In this document: in pieces, positions 27,093-63,484 of the stretch | Layout of the letters: every line of letters begins with the position of its first letter | Numbering within the stretch: position 1 is the first letter of the stretch | DNA from: a virus | Taxonomy: Duplodnaviria; Caudoviricetes | Direction: 5' to 3' (one strand) | Virus record (IMG/VR): IMGVR_UViG_3300025889_000071 | Length of the DNA stretch: 64,000 nt | Position numbers and translations under genes: made by a program | Notes under the pieces: model-generated | The model's database searches: none | The model's input: only the letters and a program-made list of their open reading frames with translations | What the model was told of the DNA's origin: nothing

Positions 27093-27167
27093 GGGCAAGT
27101 AGCTCAGTTGGATTAGAGCCACGCACTTCTAATGCGTTGGTCGGGGGTTCGAGTCCCTCCTTGCCTG
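27093..27167 (+). tRNA. tRNA-Arg(TCT)
   Basis: Acceptor GGGCAAG/CTTGCCT, anticodon loop CTTCTAA, GGTTCGAGTCC; no encoded CCA. Confidence 0.93.
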
Positions 27168-27184
27168 TTGTCCTTTTACTTCTT

Positions 27185-27379
27185 ATGGACAATTACACCT
27201 TTGGTGGAAGACCCGTAACGGGAATCAATCTTCTTTTACTCATAAGTGAGATGGAAGGTACTTATCAACATCTCAAGTATATGGGATTTGAAGAGGACAT
27301 GAAGTTCATTGATGAGATGAAGAAGAGGTATTATAAACTCTACTTCAAAACAAAGAAAGGAGAAAACAATCCTCTGTAG
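27185..27379 (+). CDS. hypothetical protein (64 aa) ending inside tRNA-Asn
   Basis: MDNYTFGGRPVTG...; TAG is tRNA nt 8-10. Confidence 0.6.
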   Translation: MDNYTFGGRPVTGINLLLLISEMEGTYQHLKYMGFEEDMKFIDEMKKRYYKLYFKTKKGENNPL

Positions 27380-27441
27380 CTCAGCGGTAGAGCCATCGAC
27401 TGTTAATCGATTGGTCGCAGGTTCGAATCCTGCCGGGGGAG
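27370..27441 (+). tRNA. tRNA-Asn(GTT)
   Basis: ATCGA-CTGTTAA-TCGAT arm, GGTTCGAATCC. Confidence 0.93.
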
Positions 27442-27443
27442 TT

Positions 27444-27515
27444 GCCTCTGTAGCACAGTGGTAGTGCAGTGCTTTTGTAAAGCAAAGGTCGCAAGTTCAA
27501 ATCTTGTCGGAGGCT
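27444..27515 (+). tRNA. tRNA-Thr(TGT)
   Basis: Acceptor GCCTCTG/CGGAGGC, loop TTTGTAA, AGTTCAAATCT. Confidence 0.88.
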
Positions 27516-27589
27516 TGACAAAATTTCGGTTTTGTCTTATATTAACATCCTTAACCTTACTCTAAATATTATTACAGGCGAGAACTAAT

Positions 27590-28060
27590 ATGGAAATTGT
27601 AGAACCTCATTCGACAATTTTAGTTCTTAATAGTTCTTATGAACCTCTTCACTTTACAAATTGGAAAAGAGCAATTATACTATTGTTCAAAGAAAAAGCA
27701 AAGTTAATATCAAAACGAGTGATTCGATTGGTAAACTATGTTATTATTCCATTTAGTAGAATGAACAATATGTATCCAACTAAAAACTTGATTTACAAGA
27801 GAGATAAAAATAAATGTCAGTATTGTGGATCGACAAAAAGTTTAACCATTGATCATGTTATTCCGCGTAGCCGTGGTGGTAAAGATACCTGGGAAAATTT
27901 AGTGGTTGCATGTTCACCTTGTAATATTAAAAAGGGTGATAAGATGCTGGAACACACTGGAATGAAGTTATCTTCAACTCCAAAAGCACCGATTAGTAAA
28001 GTCCTTATAGATTTGACTGATTCAAAAGTTCCAGAATGGCAAGAGTTTATCTTTGAATAA
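27590..28060 (+). CDS. HNH endonuclease (McrA-like, cyanobacterial type)
   Basis: LVLNSSYEPL, CQYCG..LTIDHVIPRSRGG..WENLVVACSPCN. Confidence 0.88.
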   Translation: MEIVEPHSTILVLNSSYEPLHFTNWKRAIILLFKEKAKLISKRVIRLVNYVIIPFSRMNNMYPTKNLIYKRDKNKCQYCGSTKSLTIDHVIPRSRGGKDTWENLVVACSPCNIKKGDKMLEHTGMKLSSTPKAPISKVLIDLTDSKVPEWQEFIFE

Positions 28061-28065
28061 ACACT

Positions 28066-28094
28066 TGACAAGATAATCCAAACAGGTTATACTT
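28066..28094 (+). promoter_or_regulatory. sigma70 promoter
   Basis: TTGACA-17-TATACT. Confidence 0.65.
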
Positions 28095-28149
28095 GTCTCA
28101 TGGTTAAAGGGTTTAGTTAACTAAATAATGTTACTACACCCCGTGATAC

Positions 28150-28503
28150 ATGCCATACGCAAACAAAGAAGACCGACAACGTTATCAAACTGCTTATAAA
28201 AAGGAGTATGATAAACGGTCAGATGTCAAGCAAAAACGTAAAGAATTACGTGAAGCACGTTCTAAACGAAACAAAGAGTTTGTTTTAGAACAAATGACAC
28301 CTTGTATTGTTTGTGGTGAAAATGATCCTGTGGTGATAGATTTTCATCATTTGGATCATACAGAGAAAGAGCATGGTATTAGTAAACTAATACATAATAA
28401 CTCTTCTTTAGAAAAGATTAAAACAGAGATTGACAAATGTGTTTGTCTGTGTTCTAATTGTCATCGTAGAGTCCATGCCGGAACTCTACAACTGCGGGAT
28501 TAG
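28150..28503 (+). mobile_element. HNH homing-endonuclease-like ORF overlapping tRNA-Gly
   Basis: CIVCGE..IDFHH..KCVCLCSNCHRRVH. Confidence 0.8.
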
Positions 28504-28566
28504 TTCAGTTGGTAGAACGTCAGCCTTCCAAGCTGAATGTCGTCGGTTCGAATCCGATATCCCGCT
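28494..28566 (+). tRNA. tRNA-Gly(TCC)
   Basis: Acceptor GCGGGAT/ATCCCGC, loop CTTCCAA. Confidence 0.93.
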
Positions 28567-28599
28567 TCGGTAAACCCTAAAAAGTTTTCCGTATAAATA

Positions 28600-28765
28600 C
28601 TTGTTCGTAACTTTAATGTTACGAATTACAACAAACAGAAGATGCCTCAAGTACTCGCATCAGTTTTGTTGACCGGACCACAGTAGTGTGGTATACTAAA
28701 TCTGCGATCGGGAAGTCGAGTCCGATCCATCATCTGCGGGTAACCATTCCGCAAGTAAATTTAAC
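28600..28765 (+). ncRNA. structured leader, likely manA RNA motif
   Basis: Hairpins TTCGTAAC/GTTACGAA, GATGC/GCATC, ACCACA/TGTGGT, GATCGG/CCGATC, TGCGG/CCGCA; tRNA-adjacent; resembles recalled manA core AAGTCGAGTC..CATCTGCGGGTAACCATTCCGCAAGTAA. Confidence 0.6.
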
Positions 28766-28777
28766 GAGGTATCTAAA

Positions 28778-29149
28778 ATGATCAAATCTGTATTCGCAGC
28801 AACTGCTGCTCTCTCCATGTCCGCTGGTGCTGCTTTTGCAGGTCCCTACGTGAATGTGGAAACCAATGCTGGTTGGGTTGGAGATGACTACTCCGGAGCC
28901 GTCACCGATCTGCACGTAGGTTATGAAGCTGGTCTTGGTGATTCTGCTGCATGGTATATTCAAGGTGGCCCTTCGATCGTCTCCCCTGACGGTGCAGAGT
29001 CTTCCACCGAATTCTCTGGTAAAGTCGGAGTTTCTGCTGGTCTGACCGATCAACTGTCTGCTTATGGTGAACTCTCTGCTGCTACTACTGATCAAGAGTT
29101 CGAAGATCTGAACGTTGGTGGTAAACTGGGTCTGAAGTACGCTTTCTGA
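28778..29149 (+). CDS. small outer-membrane beta-barrel-like protein
   Basis: Signal peptide to AFA, alternating beta pattern, C-terminal LGLKYAF. Confidence 0.7.
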   Translation: MIKSVFAATAALSMSAGAAFAGPYVNVETNAGWVGDDYSGAVTDLHVGYEAGLGDSAAWYIQGGPSIVSPDGAESSTEFSGKVGVSAGLTDQLSAYGELSAATTDQEFEDLNVGGKLGLKYAF

Positions 29150-29173
29150 TTTTCAGAATAAGTGCTATAATAT

Positions 29174-29198
29174 GAGGGTCTTCGGGCCCTCTTTTTTT
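29174..29198 (+). terminator. rho-independent terminator
   Basis: GAGGGTC-TTCG-GGCCCTC plus T7. Confidence 0.8.
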
Positions 29199-29381
29199 AT
29201 GAAAAAAATTTTACTATCTCCAGTCACTCACTTCAATCTTTTGATTGTAGGAACTTTAATCCTTATAGGTGTAATGCATAATCGGGCACATCATAAAATG
29301 GAAGTGGATGTTGATGGATATGCAAGACAGTTTTGTAAAAAGAATGTGGAAAAATGTAAATCTTTTATTGGTGAATATTAA
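29199..29381 (+). CDS. small membrane protein
   Basis: MKKILLSPVTHFNLLIVG. Confidence 0.55.
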   Translation: MKKILLSPVTHFNLLIVGTLILIGVMHNRAHHKMEVDVDGYARQFCKKNVEKCKSFIGEY

Positions 29382-29599
29382 TGACCGTTCCTTTTTATAT
29401 TGATATTGAGTATCAAAAGGTAGAAGTTCCTCAAGAAATTTTATCTTATTGCGATGCATTTACTACGGATGCCACTCGTGAGGAACTTCGATATCTTGAT
29501 TGTGTTTATATGAATATGGGCCTTTATGGAAATGATCCTGAACAAATGAAAGAGATGAGGAGACGTTATAACTATAATGTGCGACCTGTTTTTGATTGA
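29381..29599 (+). CDS. conserved hypothetical protein
   Basis: 72 aa. Confidence 0.6.
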   Translation: MTVPFYIDIEYQKVEVPQEILSYCDAFTTDATREELRYLDCVYMNMGLYGNDPEQMKEMRRRYNYNVRPVFD

Positions 29600-29793
29600 T
29601 GAAAAAGAAACTTAAAAGGACAATCAAAGAATTTTTCAAACCATCTGAAAAACTAAATCATGAAAGTCTATATGAAATGATTGAAAATCTTCAATATAGG
29701 ATTAGTGATATGGAAAGTGAACACATGATTATGATGTGTGAACTTCGAAAATTATATACTTTGGTCGGCAAGGAGCACACAAATGAAAATTAA
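29596..29793 (+). CDS. hypothetical protein
   Basis: 65 aa. Confidence 0.5.
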   Translation: MMKKKLKRTIKEFFKPSEKLNHESLYEMIENLQYRISDMESEHMIMMCELRKLYTLVGKEHTNEN

Positions 29794-29953
29794 TTTGTGG
29801 TACTCTAAAAGTATGAAGCAGTGGAGATGGACTCTCTGCGAAGAAACTAAAAAAGGTGCGGTATCAGAGTGTCATTCTGGCCAACAACCACTTTTAAGAG
29901 ATGCGATGGATGATGTTGCTAATACTGTTGAATACATTATTAAATCAAAATAA
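29783..29953 (+). CDS. conserved hypothetical protein
   Basis: MKINLWYSKSMKQWRWTL; AGGAG RBS. Confidence 0.6.
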   Translation: MKINLWYSKSMKQWRWTLCEETKKGAVSECHSGQQPLLRDAMDDVANTVEYIIKSK

Positions 29954-29970
29954 ATTTTATATTTTTATTC

Positions 29971-30924
29971 ATGGAAATTCCAATTTTTAATAAATCTGGC
30001 AATCAGGTAAATTCTATTCATATCTCTGACACTATTGAATATATTGATGGTAGAGTATGTAAGGGAGAAAAAAATTATTATAAGGGTATAGGGGTGCCTT
30101 ATTCTATGCATTATATACATCCAGATGATATGAATGATGAGTATGAGTATATTGATCGTCACTCTGTATTCTATATGGGCAATATAGTATCAAAAAAATG
30201 TTTTAAAGATAAATTTGGAATATTTCAAGAAAGATATCAACCTCATTTTACTGATTGGTTGGGTGCATGTGGGATTAAAGAATTGAATATTTTTGAGAAT
30301 CTTTATGATGAAGGTGGTTTTGAAATGAATTCTATTGAAATTTTAGATAGAGAAGTTATAGATAAAGATAATGAACAATATTATCTCAAAGTAAATTATC
30401 TAGATGGTAGGGGAAATTATTTAAGTAATCCACAACCAAAAAACTTAAGGATATTGCTTGATTATATGATTCAAAGTGATTGGAATTTTCCATGGGATAA
30501 AAATTCAATAACAGATATTTCAACAAAATCCAAAGTGTCTGATGTTGCAGACATTTTTAAATCAAAAGAATTGAAACATAAAATAGGTAGCATTTATTCT
30601 GTTCTCTATAGTTTGTATCATTCTGACAAGAAAGAATATCATAAATTCTGTGATGTGAATGGATTGCAACATGTGAATCAAATGAGCTTTGTTTTCAATA
30701 CAATATCATTATTGGTTTTTAATAAAGTTGACATTTCAGAAATTACTTTCAAAAATCCTGTGGAATCATATAAGCACATTGTTTTGAATTATTTGATTGA
30801 CGGCAAAAATTGTGGATTTTGTGGAGTTGGTAGTTGTAAAGGTAGGAAAGATAGTAATCAATCTTATGGAGAAGAGATTAGAGATGAATATGTTAGAATG
30901 ACAAGACAGCAATTGAAAGTATAA
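29971..30924 (+). CDS. AT-rich hypothetical protein
   Basis: 317-aa ORF, C-terminal CGFCGVGSC. Confidence 0.65.
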   Translation: MEIPIFNKSGNQVNSIHISDTIEYIDGRVCKGEKNYYKGIGVPYSMHYIHPDDMNDEYEYIDRHSVFYMGNIVSKKCFKDKFGIFQERYQPHFTDWLGACGIKELNIFENLYDEGGFEMNSIEILDREVIDKDNEQYYLKVNYLDGRGNYLSNPQPKNLRILLDYMIQSDWNFPWDKNSITDISTKSKVSDVADIFKSKELKHKIGSIYSVLYSLYHSDKKEYHKFCDVNGLQHVNQMSFVFNTISLLVFNKVDISEITFKNPVESYKHIVLNYLIDGKNCGFCGVGSCKGRKDSNQSYGEEIRDEYVRMTRQQLKV

Positions 30925-30959
30925 ATAAATTTAAAATTGAAGAAGTTCAGAACAATACA

Positions 30960-31217
30960 ATGGAAAATATAAAAATTAGATGTCGCTCCTGTGGTAGGGA
31001 GTTGGAGGGACATCAGAATAAGACGGTTTCTTGTGGATGTCCAAACATGGCAACTATTCGTGGTGATAGAGTTTCAGCAGTTGACTTATCTGAAGTTGTT
31101 ATGCTAAACTCTTATCAATCCCAAAATAAAAAGGGAGTTCTGTCACAACAAGATATTCAGTGGCAGGAGCAAAGACGACAACGTAAAGTTCGTAAATTGG
31201 ACTTTGAGGTTCGTTGA
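30960..31217 (+). CDS. conserved zinc-ribbon-like hypothetical protein
   Basis: CRSC..CGC motif; TATAAATA at 30921. Confidence 0.7.
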   Translation: MENIKIRCRSCGRELEGHQNKTVSCGCPNMATIRGDRVSAVDLSEVVMLNSYQSQNKKGVLSQQDIQWQEQRRQRKVRKLDFEVR

Positions 31218-31220
31218 ATT

Positions 31221-31303
31221 GGAGAGAGTCCGGTTGGTCGAGGACACCGCCTTGAAAGCGGCTGGGGGTAACACCTTCGCAGGTTCGATTCCTGTTCTCT
31301 CCG
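31221..31303 (+). tRNA. tRNA-Ser(TGA)
   Basis: Acceptor GGAGAGA/TCTCTCC, loop CTTGAAA, long variable arm. Confidence 0.9.
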
Positions 31304-31306
31304 TTT

Positions 31307-31380
31307 CGGGCATTAGCGCAGTTTGGTAGCGCGTTCCGTTTGGGGCGGAAAGGTCATAGGTTCAAATCCTATATGCCCGA
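31307..31380 (+). tRNA. tRNA-Pro(TGG)
   Basis: TTCCG-TTTGGGG-CGGAA arm; acceptor CGGGCAT/ATGCCCG. Confidence 0.92.
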
Positions 31381-35242: not shown

Positions 35243-35771
35243 TCTAAAAGATGCATTTGTAATCACCTCAAAAAAATATGAGGATGATAGAGGATTTTTT
35301 ATGGAGTCTTTTAATTCCAAAGAATTTAGAGAAAATGTAAGTAGAACAGAATTTTTTGTTCAAGATAATCATTCCAAATCTAGTAAAGGTGTATTGAGAG
35401 GACTGCATTATCAGATTGAACATCCTCAAGCAAAGTTGGTAAGATGCATTTCTGGTGTTGTGTATGATGTAATTGTAGATCTTCGTAAAACATCAGAAAC
35501 ATTTGGAAAATGGTTTGGAATTACACTTGATAGGCCTGAATTACAATTGTGGGTTCCGCCTGGATTTGCTCATGGTTTTTATGTAGTCAGTGATTTGGCA
35601 GAGATAGTATATAAAACTACTGATTATTATTACCCAGAACATGATAGAACTCTTTTATGGAATGATTCGGAACTGAATATTGATTGGGGATTTGAAGGAA
35701 ATCCAGTTCTTTCTCTAAAAGATTCGCAAGGAAAAACTTTTGAAGAGTGTGATAAGTACGAATATGAGTGA
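35223..35771 (+). CDS. rfbC: dTDP-4-dehydrorhamnose 3,5-epimerase
   Basis: DDRGFF, QDNHSKS, LRGLHYQ, GFAHGF. Confidence 0.93.
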   Translation: MKITETNLKDAFVITSKKYEDDRGFFMESFNSKEFRENVSRTEFFVQDNHSKSSKGVLRGLHYQIEHPQAKLVRCISGVVYDVIVDLRKTSETFGKWFGITLDRPELQLWVPPGFAHGFYVVSDLAEIVYKTTDYYYPEHDRTLLWNDSELNIDWGFEGNPVLSLKDSQGKTFEECDKYEYE

Positions 35772-55664: not shown

Positions 55665-55699
55665 AAATAAATCAACGACAAAGAAGTTTACATTTCTTA

Positions 55700-55825
55700 A
55701 CCGTTGGAACACACCCCGCAAACCGAGACCTCTAGGGTGTCTAAATCACGTCTCTTATATCCCAAGGCGAGGGGTCTTGGGAAATAGTAACTCCACCATG
55801 TCCCTGATGGTCTTACTTAAATTTC
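55700..55825 (+). ncRNA. structured psbA 5' leader, likely PhotoRC-II motif
   Basis: GAGAC/GTCTC, CCCAAG/CTTGGG, CCAT/ATGG stems in front of psbA. Confidence 0.5.
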
Positions 55826-58178: not shown

Positions 58179-59240
58179 TTGGCTTCATCTACTCTATCAA
58201 TTCCACAACAAAAAGGAGGTTGGTTCGATGTCCTCGATGATTGGCTTAAGCGTGATCGGTTTGTTTTTGTCGGTTGGTCTGGCATTCTCCTTTTCCCTAC
58301 AGCTTATCTCGCTCTTGGCGGTTGGCTTACAGGAACCACCTTTGCTACCAGTTGGTACACCCATGGCTTGGCGAGTTCATACCTTGAGGGTGCTAACTTT
58401 CTCACTGCTGCTGTTTCTACTCCTGCTGATGCTCTCGGACATAGCCTCCTTCTTCTTTGGGGTCCAGAAGCTCAGGGAGATTTCGTCCGCTGGGTCCAAC
58501 TTGGGGGACTCTGGCCTTTTGTGGCGCTCCACGGAGCTTTCGCTCTAATTGGTTTCATGCTTCGACAGTTTGAAATTGCACGTTTAGTGGGGATTAGACC
58601 GTACAATGCAATTGCTTTTTCGGGTCCTATTGCCGTATTCGTTAGCGTTTTTCTCATGTACCCACTTGGACAGTCCAGTTGGTTCTTTGCACCGTCCTTT
58701 GGCGTTGCGGCAATCTTCAGATTCTTACTTTTTCTACAAGGATTTCATAACTGGACACTCAACCCCTTCCATATGATGGGAGTTGCTGGTATACTGGGAG
58801 GAGCACTCTTATGTGCTATTCATGGTGCTACTGTAGAAAACACACTTTATGAAGATGGCGAACAATCAAATACTTTCAAGGCATTTGAGCCGACTCAAGA
58901 AGAAGAGACTTATTCAATGGTTACCGCTAATCGTTTTTGGTCGCAGATTTTCGGTATTGCGTTTAGCAATAAGCGTTGGTTGCATTTTTTCATGCTGTTT
59001 GTTCCTGTTATGGGTCTCTGGACATCTTCAATCGGGATCATCGGTCTTGCACTCAACCTTCGTGCATACGATTTTGTATCCCAAGAATTGAGAGCAGCAG
59101 AGGATCCAGAATTCGAAACATTTTACACAAAAAATATACTTTTGAATGAGGGGTTAAGGGCTTGGATGGCTCCAGTAGACCAGCCGCACGAGCAGTTTGT
59201 ATTTCCAGAGGAAGTGCTTCCCAGGGGAAATGCACTGTGA
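58179..59240 (+). CDS. psbD: photosystem II D2 protein
   Basis: Full-length D2 ending [10 protein letters not shown]; TTG start; no intron. Confidence 0.98.
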
Positions 59241-59449
59241 ATCACTATCTGGTTCTTGTATATGGCATATGCTTTTCTCTTATCGCAGGAGGTGCTTTTG
59301 CTTTGATGTGGAGCAATGTTCAATCTATTAATAAGATAATGGATAAACCTCCTAAACCACGTCATCCAGAAGCACCTGAACCAGGAGAACAAGTAATGTA
59401 TGTTGATTTATCTAGAGAAAAACTAGAGAATTTATATGGTGACAAATGA
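59237..59449 (+). CDS. small membrane protein
   Basis: TM plus RHPEAP..VMYVDL. Confidence 0.6.
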
Positions 59450-59577
59450 ACCTATACCAAAGTGGGTATATTGGATGGGCATTGGACTAATGTTATTCAC
59501 AGTCTTTTGTTTTGGTATTATGCTTGCAGGTATGATCTATGTGTGATATAGTAAGAGGGTTAATTCCCTCTTTTTTT

Positions 59578-59886
59578 ATGATCGGAAATCTTGATCCTGA
59601 AGAACGTATTATGGCTAAACCGACTGTGTATGAACAAGTTGCATCCCTAGTCCGAAAATATGGATGGGAAGAAGATGATGAGATTACTGTTGAAATGGCA
59701 GGAACTCAAGTCTCTGGTATTGATGTGGGTGAAGAGTACAATAAAAGGTGGCAATCTCCTATTGGCACTCGTAAGTATAACAAAGATGCCTTTATTGTTA
59801 TTAAGAATCAGTCTCGCAGGGACCTGACCAAATCTCAACCTTTCTCTGAAGGTGAATTTAATCCACGACATCCTCACGAAGGTTAA
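59578..59886 (+). CDS. conserved cyanophage hypothetical protein
   Basis: VEMAGTQVSGIDVGE..KWQSPIGTRKYNKD. Confidence 0.7.
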   Translation: MIGNLDPEERIMAKPTVYEQVASLVRKYGWEEDDEITVEMAGTQVSGIDVGEEYNKRWQSPIGTRKYNKDAFIVIKNQSRRDLTKSQPFSEGEFNPRHPHEG

Positions 59887-59918
59887 ACAACCTCTTGCTA
59901 GAGACCTTTTTTGATGGT

Positions 59919-60269
59919 ATGATGACTTCAAACAAAACTAAATTCATGACTAATAGAGACTGGGAAGCAATGAATAGTCTTGAAGAAGCATTCAATCAAA
60001 TTACTACATTTGAGTTTCTTCTTGAGCAACTACAAGAAGCAGTAAATACCAATAACACTCAACGCATCGTTGATACTACTGCTGCATTGACGGCTTTTTA
60101 TACTCCTTATTGTAATAACTGGGATGATAAATTTACATCTGCATGGAATAAAATAATTCGAAATGAACCTAATTCATCTCATGACACTTCTTCAGCAGAT
60201 GAAAATACAACTGATAGGGATTGGGAAGACTTTTGGAATAGTTTCTGTGAAGAAAAATGCCAACCATGA
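59919..60269 (+). CDS. hypothetical protein
   Basis: ORF behind TTGCTA-17-TATGAT. Confidence 0.55.
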   Translation: MMTSNKTKFMTNRDWEAMNSLEEAFNQITTFEFLLEQLQEAVNTNNTQRIVDTTAALTAFYTPYCNNWDDKFTSAWNKIIRNEPNSSHDTSSADENTTDRDWEDFWNSFCEEKCQP

Positions 60270-60305
60270 AATTTGGTAATTAAATATATACTATTAAATT
60301 ATAAA

Positions 60306-60566
60306 ATGACTATGAATTTTTTAATTTATTCAAAGTTTGGTTGTCCATTCTGTGTAAAACTTAAAAGAGCAATGGAAATTGCAAATCTTCAACATAAAGT
60401 TTATATGCTAGATGAAAATTTTGACCGAAATGAATTCTATGCTAAATTTGGCCATGGTTCAACATTTCCACAAGTTGTATTGAATGTTGAAGGTCCTGAT
60501 GATGGAACTCGTTTAGGTGGATGTACAGAAACTATTCAGTATTTGAGAGAAAATAAACTAGTTTAA
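60306..60566 (+). CDS. glutaredoxin
   Basis: CPFC, TFPQV, GGCTE. Confidence 0.9.
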   Translation: MTMNFLIYSKFGCPFCVKLKRAMEIANLQHKVYMLDENFDRNEFYAKFGHGSTFPQVVLNVEGPDDGTRLGGCTETIQYLRENKLV

Positions 60567-60571
60567 GATCA

Positions 60572-60919
60572 ATGGAAGAAGTTTACGATATCGTAGAAAA
60601 AGCAATTGATCATGCATTTAATGGTAAATTCTTACTTAAATTTTACGAGTATCTTAAAGAGAGAAAAACCAAAAGAGTGGAGGTAGTTGAATTTATTCAC
60701 AGTTCTACCGCACAAGAAATTACATCTCTTATATGTGAACTTGAAGAATATCTTGAAGGTGGTAGTGATTATAATCATAAATTCCTTCGTGAAGCATATG
60801 GACACATTCCAAAACCACAAGCAAGAAAGATAAAAGTTTATTTAAATGATATTATTGATGATGCAAAGAGGTATGACTATGATAGAAAGCCAGGAAGGAG
60901 AAAAAAGCAATCTAAATAA
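60572..60919 (+). CDS. conserved T4-like cyanophage hypothetical protein
   Basis: LREAYGHIPKPQARKI. Confidence 0.75.
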   Translation: MEEVYDIVEKAIDHAFNGKFLLKFYEYLKERKTKRVEVVEFIHSSTAQEITSLICELEEYLEGGSDYNHKFLREAYGHIPKPQARKIKVYLNDIIDDAKRYDYDRKPGRRKKQSK

Positions 60920-61106
60920 TGATGAACTCGGGATTAACCGAGGAGTTGAGCTACTATTAAGAAAAAGGAGAAGAAAGGAATCTGAACCCAAAACTTTTGA
61001 AGTAAAGTTTGGTAAAATGATTGCTCTCTTCCGCAGAGAGTTTCATTTTTATTTTGAATTCAGTTTTGATTATAAGAAAAAATTCTCTGGAGAAAGGCAA
61101 TGTTAG
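60846..61106 (+). CDS. conserved hypothetical protein
   Basis: INRGVELLLRKRR; start uncertain. Confidence 0.6.
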   Translation: MILLMMQRGMTMIESQEGEKSNLNNDELGINRGVELLLRKRRRKESEPKTFEVKFGKMIALFRREFHFYFEFSFDYKKKFSGERQC

Positions 61107-61318
61107 CAGTAACTCTTACCATTAGTACTCTTGTTAGTATAATGTTCTTTTTTGTTGGTGGTATGCTAGGATGGCTAGCAAGAGAACATTTCTATCAGAC
61201 TCAACCAATTGTCACTCATCCAGAAATGTTTGATGAAAATGGCAATGTATTACCAGATGAAATTTTAGCAGTACGATTTGAAAACAGTTATGACAACTAC
61301 GAAGAAGAAGACGAGTAA
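61100..61318 (+). CDS. conserved membrane protein
   Basis: TM then HPEMFDENG. Confidence 0.7.
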   Translation: MLAVTLTISTLVSIMFFFVGGMLGWLAREHFYQTQPIVTHPEMFDENGNVLPDEILAVRFENSYDNYEEEDE

Positions 61319-61862
61319 GACAACTCAACCAATTGGAGCAATATTGCCTCCCAATCCATTTGTATATGAAGTTTTAGAACTGGCATCTAAACAAAGGTCA
61401 AGTGCTAAAAAAGTGGAGGTTCTTAAAACATATGAACACATTTCATTAAAGTCTATTTTTATTTGGAATTTTGATGAGACTGTAATTTCTGAACTTCCTG
61501 AAGGCGATGTTCCTTATGGTGATGCAGAAGACCAATCAGTGTATTCTGGATCTCTCTCTGAAAATTTGGCAAGAGAGGCCCGTGGTGGTGAATCTGCCAC
61601 TGGTCAAGACCTTGATGGAAGAGGTAAAACATCTCTTCGTAGAGAGTATCGAAATCTCTATCACTTTGTCAAAGGTGGTAATGGTGGGTTGAATCATATT
61701 CGTAGAGAGATGATGTTCATCAATCTTCTTCGTGGTCTTCATCCTAAAGAGGCTGAAGTTTTGATTTTGACCAAAGATAAAAGACTCTCCACAAAGTATA
61801 AAATTACAAAGGACATTGTTTCACAAGCATATCCTGATATTCAATGGGGAAACCGTTCTTGA
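61278..61862 (+). CDS. conserved T4-like hypothetical protein
   Basis: LPEGDVPY, RREMMFINLLRGLHPKEAE. Confidence 0.78.
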   Translation: MKTVMTTTKKKTSKTTQPIGAILPPNPFVYEVLELASKQRSSAKKVEVLKTYEHISLKSIFIWNFDETVISELPEGDVPYGDAEDQSVYSGSLSENLAREARGGESATGQDLDGRGKTSLRREYRNLYHFVKGGNGGLNHIRREMMFINLLRGLHPKEAEVLILTKDKRLSTKYKITKDIVSQAYPDIQWGNRS

Positions 61863-61869
61863 TAATATT

Positions 61870-62220
61870 ATGACTGAACAAGTTGCAGAAAAGACAGAAG
61901 TTACTCAAGAATCTAAAATGGAGTCATGGACATCATCTGAAAAGGAAAATTCTAAAAAAGTATATGGTTGTGAAATTATGATTGAAAATGGAACTTGGGA
62001 ACAAGTTACCACTAAAGAATGTCCTAATGATGCCCATATTATAAAGTATGAAGTTGATGGTGAGACTCGATATGATTTAACTCGTAGTCAAAAAGTAGTC
62101 AATATCTTTAACATGTATTGGGATAAATTCCGTGATGGATTAAAGAGTATTGAATATGGTAAGGGTGCATATAACCCTAAACTATGGGGAGCCAAACCTC
62201 CCAAGGAGAAAAAGAAATGA
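61870..62220 (+). CDS. conserved hypothetical protein
   Basis: YGCEIMIEN..YGKGAYNPKLWG. Confidence 0.7.
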   Translation: MTEQVAEKTEVTQESKMESWTSSEKENSKKVYGCEIMIENGTWEQVTTKECPNDAHIIKYEVDGETRYDLTRSQKVVNIFNMYWDKFRDGLKSIEYGKGAYNPKLWGAKPPKEKKK

Positions 62221-62429
62221 GTGCTGGATTTGGTGGAAACCCTGGAGAGGGTAGAACAGGAAAGGATGCAAAAATTACAATTGATTTAGATGCAATTGAT
62301 GGTGTGGTTAAGAAGTATAAGAAAGTTAAAAAATACATGAAGTCAAATATGTATGCCGTGATGTCAATGGATGGAACTGAACAGATTGTTAAAGAGTTGA
62401 TTGAAGAAGCAGAGCAAAACGAAATTTAG
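62217..62429 (+). CDS. hypothetical protein
   Basis: 70 aa, ATGA overlap. Confidence 0.6.
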   Translation: MSAGFGGNPGEGRTGKDAKITIDLDAIDGVVKKYKKVKKYMKSNMYAVMSMDGTEQIVKELIEEAEQNEI

Positions 62430-62495
62430 CTTTTAAATCCATTTTAGGGGGCAAAAAAATCTGGGGCTTTTTTGCTCCTATAAGGTTTTTAAACA

Positions 62496-62537
62496 GTATC
62501 AAATGATACACAACAAAAGTACTTGACTAAATAAGGT
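62496..62537 (+). promoter_or_regulatory. NtcA-consensus box with class II spacing
   Basis: GTA-TCAAATGA-TAC, then exactly 22 nt, then TAAGGT (TAN3T). Confidence 0.6.
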
Positions 62538-62551
62538 ATAAGGTCTATAAT
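62523..62551 (+). promoter_or_regulatory. sigma70 promoter
   Basis: TTGACT-17-TATAAT. Confidence 0.8.
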
Positions 62552-62559
62552 AGACCTGT

Positions 62560-62843
62560 CGTTCATCCAAGAGGCAGTCGCTGTGCACATAGCATAGAAA
62601 GACACATCTGGACGCAAGTAAGTCGCGGAACGGAGCGTTCATCCTATGATTGAGTTACTACTATTAGCTAATTTACATAGTCCTCCAAACATGACTTGTC
62701 AGCAAGTTAGAGAGGTGGCAGAAACCGTACTGGATTCTGATATGTCTCAACAAGATAAGCAAAGATTCTTATCTCGTTTGTTTGGACAGCATATGATGCT
62801 AAAGTGTCTTAAGAAATAGGACGCACACGACTGAAGGAACGGG
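62560..62843 (+). ncRNA. glutamine-riboswitch-like RNA (glnA/Downstream-peptide class) with ORF in P3 loop
   Basis: CGTTC/GAACG P1, TCC/GGA P2, CGCAAGTA, AGTCG/CGACT P3, GAAG. Confidence 0.65.
62646..62819 (+). CDS. 57-aa ORF nested in riboswitch-like RNA
   Basis: MIELLLLANLHSPPNMTCQQ...MLKCLKK; GGAG RBS at 62632. Confidence 0.6.
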   Translation: MIELLLLANLHSPPNMTCQQVREVAETVLDSDMSQQDKQRFLSRLFGQHMMLKCLKK

Positions 62844-62879
62844 AGATTAAATTCACCCTAGTATTTCAGGAGAAACACA

Positions 62880-63047
62880 ATGAATACACTTCTCATGATC
62901 AAGAAGCAGATCGACAAAGCATCTGCACTTCACGACGCTCAAATTGCTCATACTGCATATCGTGGTGTTGAGTATAACGTATGTGGTCATGAACCACATG
63001 AGACTCACGGTACATTCTGCTATCGTGGTCATACTTATAACAAGTGA
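62880..63047 (+). CDS. DUF4278-like small protein (55 aa)
   Basis: Two YRG motifs (AYRGVEY, CYRGHTY); AGGAG RBS. Confidence 0.7.
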   Translation: MNTLLMIKKQIDKASALHDAQIAHTAYRGVEYNVCGHEPHETHGTFCYRGHTYNK

Positions 63048-63070
63048 ATTACTTGTATTAGAATGCATAG

Positions 63071-63105
63071 GAGAGGTTGACTACCTCTCTTTTTTTGTCT
63101 ATAAT
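63071..63105 (+). terminator. terminator with nested sigma70 promoter
   Basis: GAGAGGT/ACCTCTC plus T run; TTGACT-17-TATAAT. Confidence 0.7.
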
Positions 63106-63304: not shown

Positions 63305-63484
63305 ATGTACGAAGAATTAAATTGCTTCGAAGAAGCCCTTAAACATTTCGGAACTAGAGTAGAGTTTGCTATTGCTATGGAGATGGGTAGAAAACTGACT
63401 CCAGAAGAAGCATATCAAATTATCAAAACTGAACTAAAAGCATTAAAATCCTGTCGTAAGAAATTTAAAAAAGATGAATGTTAG
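63305..63484 (+). CDS. conserved hypothetical protein
   Basis: MYEELNCFEEALKHFGTRVE. Confidence 0.7.
   Translation: MYEELNCFEEALKHFGTRVEFAIAMEMGRKLTPEEAYQIIKTELKALKSCRKKFKKDEC

Follow-up and report, generated by a model that had tools for sequence, protein, structure and literature searches.

NtcA, the nitrogen regulator of the cyanobacterial host, is a CRP-family protein that responds to 2-oxoglutarate. Canonical class-II promoters activated by NtcA, such as those of glnA, amt1 and urtA, have a box centred at -41.5 followed by a TAN3T -10 element, and have no -35. In the passages of Klaehn et al. 2018 (PMC6212724) on which we draw, the NtcA site is given as a palindromic GTA-N8-TAC, and the gifB and IF17-like genes (see also Garcia-Dominguez et al. 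2000, cited therein) are described as a module in which an NtcA-repressed promoter is combined with a glutamine riboswitch of the ON type. In Synechocystis, 71% of the NtcA sites at induced genes are found at -41 to -44, while those at repressed genes range from -69 to +83 (PMC5714215). Anabaena gifA has two NtcA sites, at -28.5 and -77.5, and the meaning of this dual-site arrangement is described in a review as not understood (PMC6316151).

In phages, NtcA sites have been predicted in the genomes of T4-like cyanophages, at 1-16 per genome (Sullivan et al. 2010, PMC3037559), and NtcA sites followed by sigma70 promoters were described on a viral contig carrying nirA and focA (Gazitua et al. 2020, PMC8115048). 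Both studies interpret the sites as a means by which the phage exploits the 2-oxoglutarate/NtcA signal of the host. Glutamine riboswitches in T4-like cyanophages are also already known from the literature. In the searchable literature we found no paper that connects the glutamine-riboswitch cassette of phages with an NtcA box, or that gives conservation statistics for such a box, and no regulatory feature is annotated at the cassette locus in the GenBank records of S-ShM2, Syn19 and Syn9. What is new in the locus described here is the arrangement, in which the box precedes a complete consensus promoter and its distances from that promoter are fixed but non-canonical; the parts themselves are familiar.

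The window, which is the whole stretch of 64,000 nucleotides that was analysed, comes from a T4-like cyanomyovirus, with psbD at 58179-59240 and a thyX-like ORF starting at 63474. No close cultured phage relative was found over 59400-62450. The photosystem genes are preceded by a PhotoRC-II RNA (73.7 bits) at 55698-55795, and six tRNA genes are clustered at 27093-31380. The features of the locus are listed in Table 1.

Table 1 Features of the box, the promoter and the cassette, with positions in the window
Feature	Position	Strand	Remark
Terminator-like A/U-rich hairpin, then GGUUUUU	62441..62489	+	ends the upstream operon
NtcA-type box GTA-N8-TAC	62496..62509	.	extended AGTA-N8-TACA at 62495-62510
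-35 hexamer TTGACT, sigma70-type promoter	62523..62528	+	high information content across loci
TAAGGT, candidate NtcA-type -10	62532..62537	+	within the sigma70 spacer, 22 nt after the box
Palindrome AGGTCTAT-A-ATAGACCT around the -10 hexamer	62541..62557	.	DNA fold -4.9 kcal/mol, z -5.45
-10 hexamer TATAAT	62546..62551	+	17-nt spacer from TTGACT
Glutamine-riboswitch-like leader	62558..62639	+	type-1-like core, 39-nt insertion
57-aa ORF, Syn9 gp197-like	62646..62819	+	no Pfam family match
55-aa ORF, two YRG motifs, IF17-like	62880..63047	+	weakly DUF4278
Intrinsic terminator at the cassette end	63069..63091	+	overlaps the -35 of the next promoter (63077-63105)

The box, GTATCAAATGATAC, is a palindromic GTA-N8-TAC that fits the quoted site definition, and its coordinates were checked on the window. 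Its 5' flank is A, where the extended consensus TGTA-N8-TACA has T. The initial annotation had described this palindrome as being followed by exactly 22 nt and TAAGGT, and as lying 13 nt upstream of the -35 of a consensus sigma70 promoter. Both distances are borne out, with 62510-62531 forming the 22-nt interval, and the promoter, TTGACT-17-TATAAT (62523-62551), agrees with the consensus at 11 of 12 positions. The predicted start, at about 62558 (some 7 nt after the -10), is two bases before the aptamer sequence CGUUCA at 62560, which corresponds to the first strand of the glutamine-aptamer core. In the box-bearing loci listed, CGTTCA follows the -10 at 7-10 nt.

The leader resembles a glutamine riboswitch with sub-threshold scores, obtained in a local scan: 15 bits for RF01739 (cut-off 35) and 13.7 bits for RF01704 (cut-off 33). 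At the gathering threshold, Rfam reports no riboswitch in the window. Similar leaders or aptamer core strands were found in 426 cyanophage records. The 57-aa ORF lies between a second copy of CGUUCAUCC (62636-62644) and a second 3' half of the aptamer (62820-62845), and the 55-aa ORF matches Pfam PF14105 with an E-value of 5.9e-4 and 20.6 bits, below the cut-off of 25.3. The order of parts is that of the gifB/IF17-like module, with an NtcA-type box followed by a candidate glutamine aptamer in the leader and then by a small, putatively DUF4278-type ORF; the aptamer and DUF4278 matches of the window are both below the curated thresholds.

Some further observations concern the organisation of the cassette. 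The aptamer halves enclose whole small ORFs, in the order CGUUCAUCC, ATG to stop codon, GGACGCA...GGAACGG (62636-62845 in the window and 290-710 of the Syn9 locus), a layout present in Syn9, Syn19 and S-ShM2 as well. An ORF of about 66 aa (gp196) is likewise enclosed by the first aptamer in Syn9 and in some 30 IMG/VR loci. The upstream NtcA box is commoner in loci where the first aptamer encloses an ORF (24/31) than in those with a short hairpin (33/76). At the other end of the cassette, the terminator hairpin holds the TTGACT -35 of the next promoter (63069-63105), which again matches 11 of 12 consensus positions and drives the small ORFs that follow.

Within the window, the motif by itself is not enriched, with 12 GTA-N8-TAC sites compared with 8.1 ± 2.8 in shuffled sequences. 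Of these 12, the box at the cassette alone has TAN3T at exactly 22 nt, and no other adjoins the strong promoter. One site inside a coding region has TAN3T at 24 nt. Two other intergenic sites, at 28683-28696 and 35607-35620, have no TAN3T at 20-24 nt. The absence of enrichment over the roughly eight sites expected is in line with a chance match in A+T-rich intergenic DNA. Since the motif is unremarkable within the window alone, the significance of the box has to come from a comparison across loci.

For this comparison, 120 IMG/VR contigs were gathered with a 23-nt word from the 3' half of the aptamer alone, which makes the collection independent of the promoter. They gave 104 non-redundant loci, defined by less than 90% identity over 119 nt (the initial 9 nt of the aptamer and the 110 nt preceding it). 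In BLAST comparisons with other phages, similarity begins just 3' of the box, which suggested that the box is not conserved. This was rejected, as direct inspection does find the box, which is too short and variable to be aligned by BLAST, and (T/A)GTA-N8-TACA is present 5' of the same promoter in four of the first five relatives inspected.

An exact GTA-N8-TAC, usually as TGTA-N8-TACA, is found just 5' of the -35 in 57 of the 104 orthologous loci, a count that is not fully independent, like others of its kind, the loci compared being homologous. The background rate of the box in the same contigs is 0.34 per kb. In each of 92 sigma70-type loci, the closest match lying no more than 14 nt from the -35 was scored: 54 were exact, 9 had one mismatch and 29 were at background level, against 0.7% exact boxes at random places in the same contigs. 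The state of the box is thus bimodal, intact or replaced and rarely decayed. Conservation in orthologous loci, which the initial annotation had proposed as a check, is therefore observed, together with a sizeable group of loci (42/107) that have no box, which indicates that it is dispensable. A chance match, to which we assign a negligible probability, is effectively refuted by the recurrence of the motif at one position in dozens of divergent loci.

The box is also specific to the cassette. Across cyanophage contigs totalling about 1 Mb, 35 of 66 strong promoters linked to the riboswitch have it on their 5' side, compared with 1 of 316 other promoter-like sites, and the possibility that it is a generic feature of early cyanophage promoters was rejected on this basis. 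In the largest spacing class, the flanks, which were not selected for, are T in 35/39 loci and A in 35/39, giving TGTA-N8-TACA. Position 5 is C in 38/39 loci, while G at position 10, with which it would pair, is present in only 19/39. Extended flanks combined with non-complementary inner positions indicate the site of a dimeric DNA-binding protein and not an RNA stem. A hairpin in RNA or DNA was considered separately, as the window copy can form a 5-bp stem, and was discarded because positions 4-5 do not pair with positions 10-11 when the loci are compared.

The gap between the box and the -35 is quantised: 42 loci have 8-9 nt and 14 have 2-4 nt, and a gap of 13 nt is confined to the lineage of the window. 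Relative to the conserved promoter, the box is centred at -50.5/-51.5 in the main class, at -44.5/-45.5 in the third class and at about -55.5 in the window. The 35 loci of the 8-nt class have 29 distinct spacer sequences and a single length, so that the distance from box to -35 is constrained despite the turnover of sequence. A dedicated scan for the 13-nt layout returned three viral contigs, two of which are identical to the window at this locus. In the third, which is slightly diverged, the box is intact and TAAGGT is changed to TAAGAT, with TAN3T kept in place.

These spacings bear on the textbook geometry of an NtcA-activated promoter that the initial annotation had recognised here. In a model built on this interpretation, the box and TAAGGT would form a canonical class-II promoter with a start near 62544, from which the cassette would be transcribed specifically under nitrogen starvation of the host, beside or instead of the sigma70 promoter. 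The geometry is exact in the window, and the diverged relative preserves it; NtcA-driven phage promoters have also been proposed (Sullivan et al. 2010, PMC3037559). Among the orthologues, however, the geometry does not hold: Box-N22-TAN3T occurs in only 2 of the 57 that carry the box, which is about the chance rate, and the 13-nt spacing on which it depends is limited to this narrow lineage. Moreover, the word TTGACTAAATAAGGT, which contains TAAGGT, is also found in three loci without a box and in one with an 8-nt gap, which identifies TAAGGT as an inherited promoter spacer. The 22-nt coincidence comes from a 5-nt difference peculiar to the window lineage. A function might have been acquired there, but the comparison of loci offers no support for it.

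The locus resembles class-II NtcA promoters in the sequence of the box and, in the window only, in the 22 nt to TAN3T. In contrast to them, it has a consensus -35, so that the box does not take the place of this element, and the centres of the phage boxes (about -45, -50.5 and -55.5) differ from the canonical one. The consensus promoter that overlaps the candidate -10 should dominate over it, and induction by starvation would oppose a glutamine-ON riboswitch. The match of the promoter to the consensus is equal with and without the box (10.7 and 10.76 of 12, respectively), which reveals no visible dependence on an activator. The conserved partner of the box is the consensus -35/-10 promoter, which needs no activator.

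To compare the phage loci with those of the hosts, RF01704 was searched in 61 host-family genomes, with matches in 40, and 37 distinct Cyanobiaceae aptamers were examined. A perfect TGTAGC-N4-GCTACA is located 4-6 nt before CGTTCA in 32 of the 37 host loci, as a proximal, start-site box. In 20 of the 37 there is, in addition, a distal box of the form GTA-N8-(A/T)AC, which lies 52-54 nt upstream and precedes a CATAAT-like -10 by about 22-23 nt. This distal box is imperfect (TTTTGTATC-N5-TGAAC) and is separated by 34-35 nt from the proximal one. In Klaehn et al. (PMC6212724), the passages used here name the start-site box alone, with no second distal box, and infer for Prochlorococcus MED4 that the position overlapping the start site is a repressing one. 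A repressing-position site with a further upstream site recalls Anabaena gifA, to which the pair of proximal and distal boxes in picocyanobacteria and host-like phage loci can be compared, although the site positions and the organism are different.

A host-like proximal box is kept in six phage loci, including those of S-ShM2 and Syn19, and three IMG/VR loci among the six (L020, L079 and L088) keep the distal box too. Most host-like phage loci have a TATAAATA-type -10, and some have a GTA-N8-AAC box 22-23 nt before the -10, as at the IF17-like promoters of the hosts. A minority of cassettes has TATAAATA in place of TTGACT-17-TATAAT, namely S-ShM2 (440-495 of L126), Syn19 (230-290 of L127), L020, L079, L088, L097 and L107. 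The TATAAATA motif resembles a T4 late promoter or a host-like -10, and a host-like proximal NtcA box is retained in most of these loci as well, which raises the possibility that the cassette may be expressed at different stages of infection in different phages.

The amt1 promoters of the hosts show the canonical layout, with TGTAT-N6-NTAC, about 23 nt and then a -10-like hexamer in three of five genomes, and the flavour of their box is similar to that of the phage. This layout, like that of the IF17-like promoters and of the host-like phage loci that share it, favours a class-II promoter. Weighed against the orthologues, it still leaves activation from TAAGGT a rather improbable explanation for the window.

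Unlike the gifB/IF17-like module, where the strong host box is 4-6 nt before the aptamer and over the start site, the window has its box 5' of a full consensus -35, and the position of the host start-site NtcA box is taken by the palindrome in which the -10 is embedded. A hairpin of at least 5 bp is possible at the same place in 101 of 107 non-redundant loci, with 52 different arm sequences and a mean of -6.6 kcal/mol, compared with -1.45 kcal/mol for shuffled sequences, so that the structure is kept and the sequence is not. A transcript starting after the -10 would hold only the 3' arm. The upstream phage box resembles the distal box of the host in its left half and its T-rich flank. The simplest history would be that the cassette was taken from a host together with its NtcA-controlled promoter, and that most cyanomyoviruses then rebuilt the promoter to the consensus early type, with the upstream box kept and sharpened.

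The DNA upstream of the box has features of its own. The RNA fold of 62430-62512, which takes in the terminator-like hairpin, gives -20.5 kcal/mol (z -3.25), and many IMG/VR loci have an A/T-rich hairpin of this kind, followed by (C/T)TAAGGTTTTT, immediately 5' of the box or the -35. The gene upstream of the cassette changes in almost every phage (HNH endonuclease, thioredoxin, JmjC protein, nrdB neighbours). The recurring hairpin and the varying upstream gene suggest a mobile terminator-promoter unit.

It is conceivable that the palindrome is conserved as part of such a unit and does not respond to NtcA in the phage; it could also be an inherited host relic that has little effect on a strong early promoter, or a site for another CRP-family protein of the host or a phage protein. 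The variable upstream gene and the hairpin and T-run that often accompany the box would agree with this, as would the absence of the box from about 40% of the loci with promoter quality undiminished, and spacing classes that are about half a turn apart. Against it, the distribution is intact-or-absent with few decayed copies, the unselected flanks fit the NtcA consensus, and the spacing is fixed within classes despite the turnover of sequence. Furthermore, the linkage of the box is to a nitrogen-sensing cassette rather than to promoters in general, and NtcA boxes are present in the host homologues. We regard a palindrome without response to NtcA as unlikely, and the box as quite probably an NtcA site.

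The interpretation that we favour, with moderate confidence, is that the 14-mer is a selected NtcA site that tunes the sigma70 promoter of a nitrogen-status cassette, more likely by damping it than by activation. The cassette would be host-derived, with one or more glutamine riboswitch cores, the 57-aa ORF and the IF17-like DUF4278 ORF, and transcription would proceed from TTGACT-17-TATAAT, starting at about 62558, directly at the aptamer. NtcA bound 5' of the -35 (centre at about -55.5 here, and at about -50.5 or -45 elsewhere) would adjust the promoter to the level of 2-oxoglutarate, and under nitrogen starvation it would damp an already strong promoter, as at gifB in the host. Both the binding of NtcA and the sign of its effect are what we infer; the motif, its conservation and cassette specificity, the constrained spacing and the host parallels are observations.

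If the palindrome is an NtcA site, damping would be the somewhat favoured outcome, activation would be a serious second, and little effect would be improbable. Damping is preferred because the two levels of control would then agree, with transcription at low 2-oxoglutarate and translation at high glutamine. A dimer centred at -45 to -55 would, to judge from the general architecture of bacterial promoters, cover the DNA where the C-terminal domains of the RNA polymerase alpha subunits normally sit. As the host circuit is NtcA-repressed and glutamine-ON, repression would also give the phage cassette a coherent logic. In addition, centres at -50.5 and -55.5 are outside the peak of activating sites at -41 to -44 (PMC5714215).

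Some features speak against damping. The window box ends 13 nt 5' of the -35 and is clear of the core promoter, in contrast to well-characterised NtcA repression sites, which lie over the -35, the -10 or the start site. The distal box of the host, which seems homologous, occupies an activator position, 22-23 nt before the -10, and the class centred at -44.5/-45.5 is near the activating range. Three spacing classes about half a helical turn apart would also be odd for a single, face-specific mechanism.

A more specific version, which we hold only tentatively, is that the phages rebuilt a two-box host promoter into a hybrid early promoter, so that one transcript integrates 2-oxoglutarate and glutamine. 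The start-site operator would have been dropped, a consensus -35/-10 added, and the upstream box sharpened to a perfect TGTA-N8-TACA at fixed non-canonical distances (about -45, -50.5 and -55.5). 2-oxoglutarate would then be read by NtcA at transcription, and glutamine by the riboswitch at translation. If this hybrid promoter exists, NtcA would act from positions that are uncharacterised in cyanobacteria.

The use of the NtcA/2-oxoglutarate signal by phages has been proposed since 2010, resting on motif counts that are near chance per genome. The locus resembles the NtcA promoters predicted in cyanomyoviruses, in which an intergenic GTA-N8-TAC is followed by a sigma70-type promoter; those are genome-wide motif predictions presented without conservation statistics, which the box described here has. 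It offers a concrete and well-supported test case, in which a cassette-specific box, conserved in divergent phages, comes together with an IF17-like gene and a glutamine sensor, in parallel with a characterised host circuit. With gaps of 2-3, 8 and 13 nt, the natural variants provide a ready series for relating the placement of an NtcA site to whether it raises or lowers expression. Should NtcA bind here, both arms of the carbon/nitrogen balance of the host would be read by the phage on one transcript.
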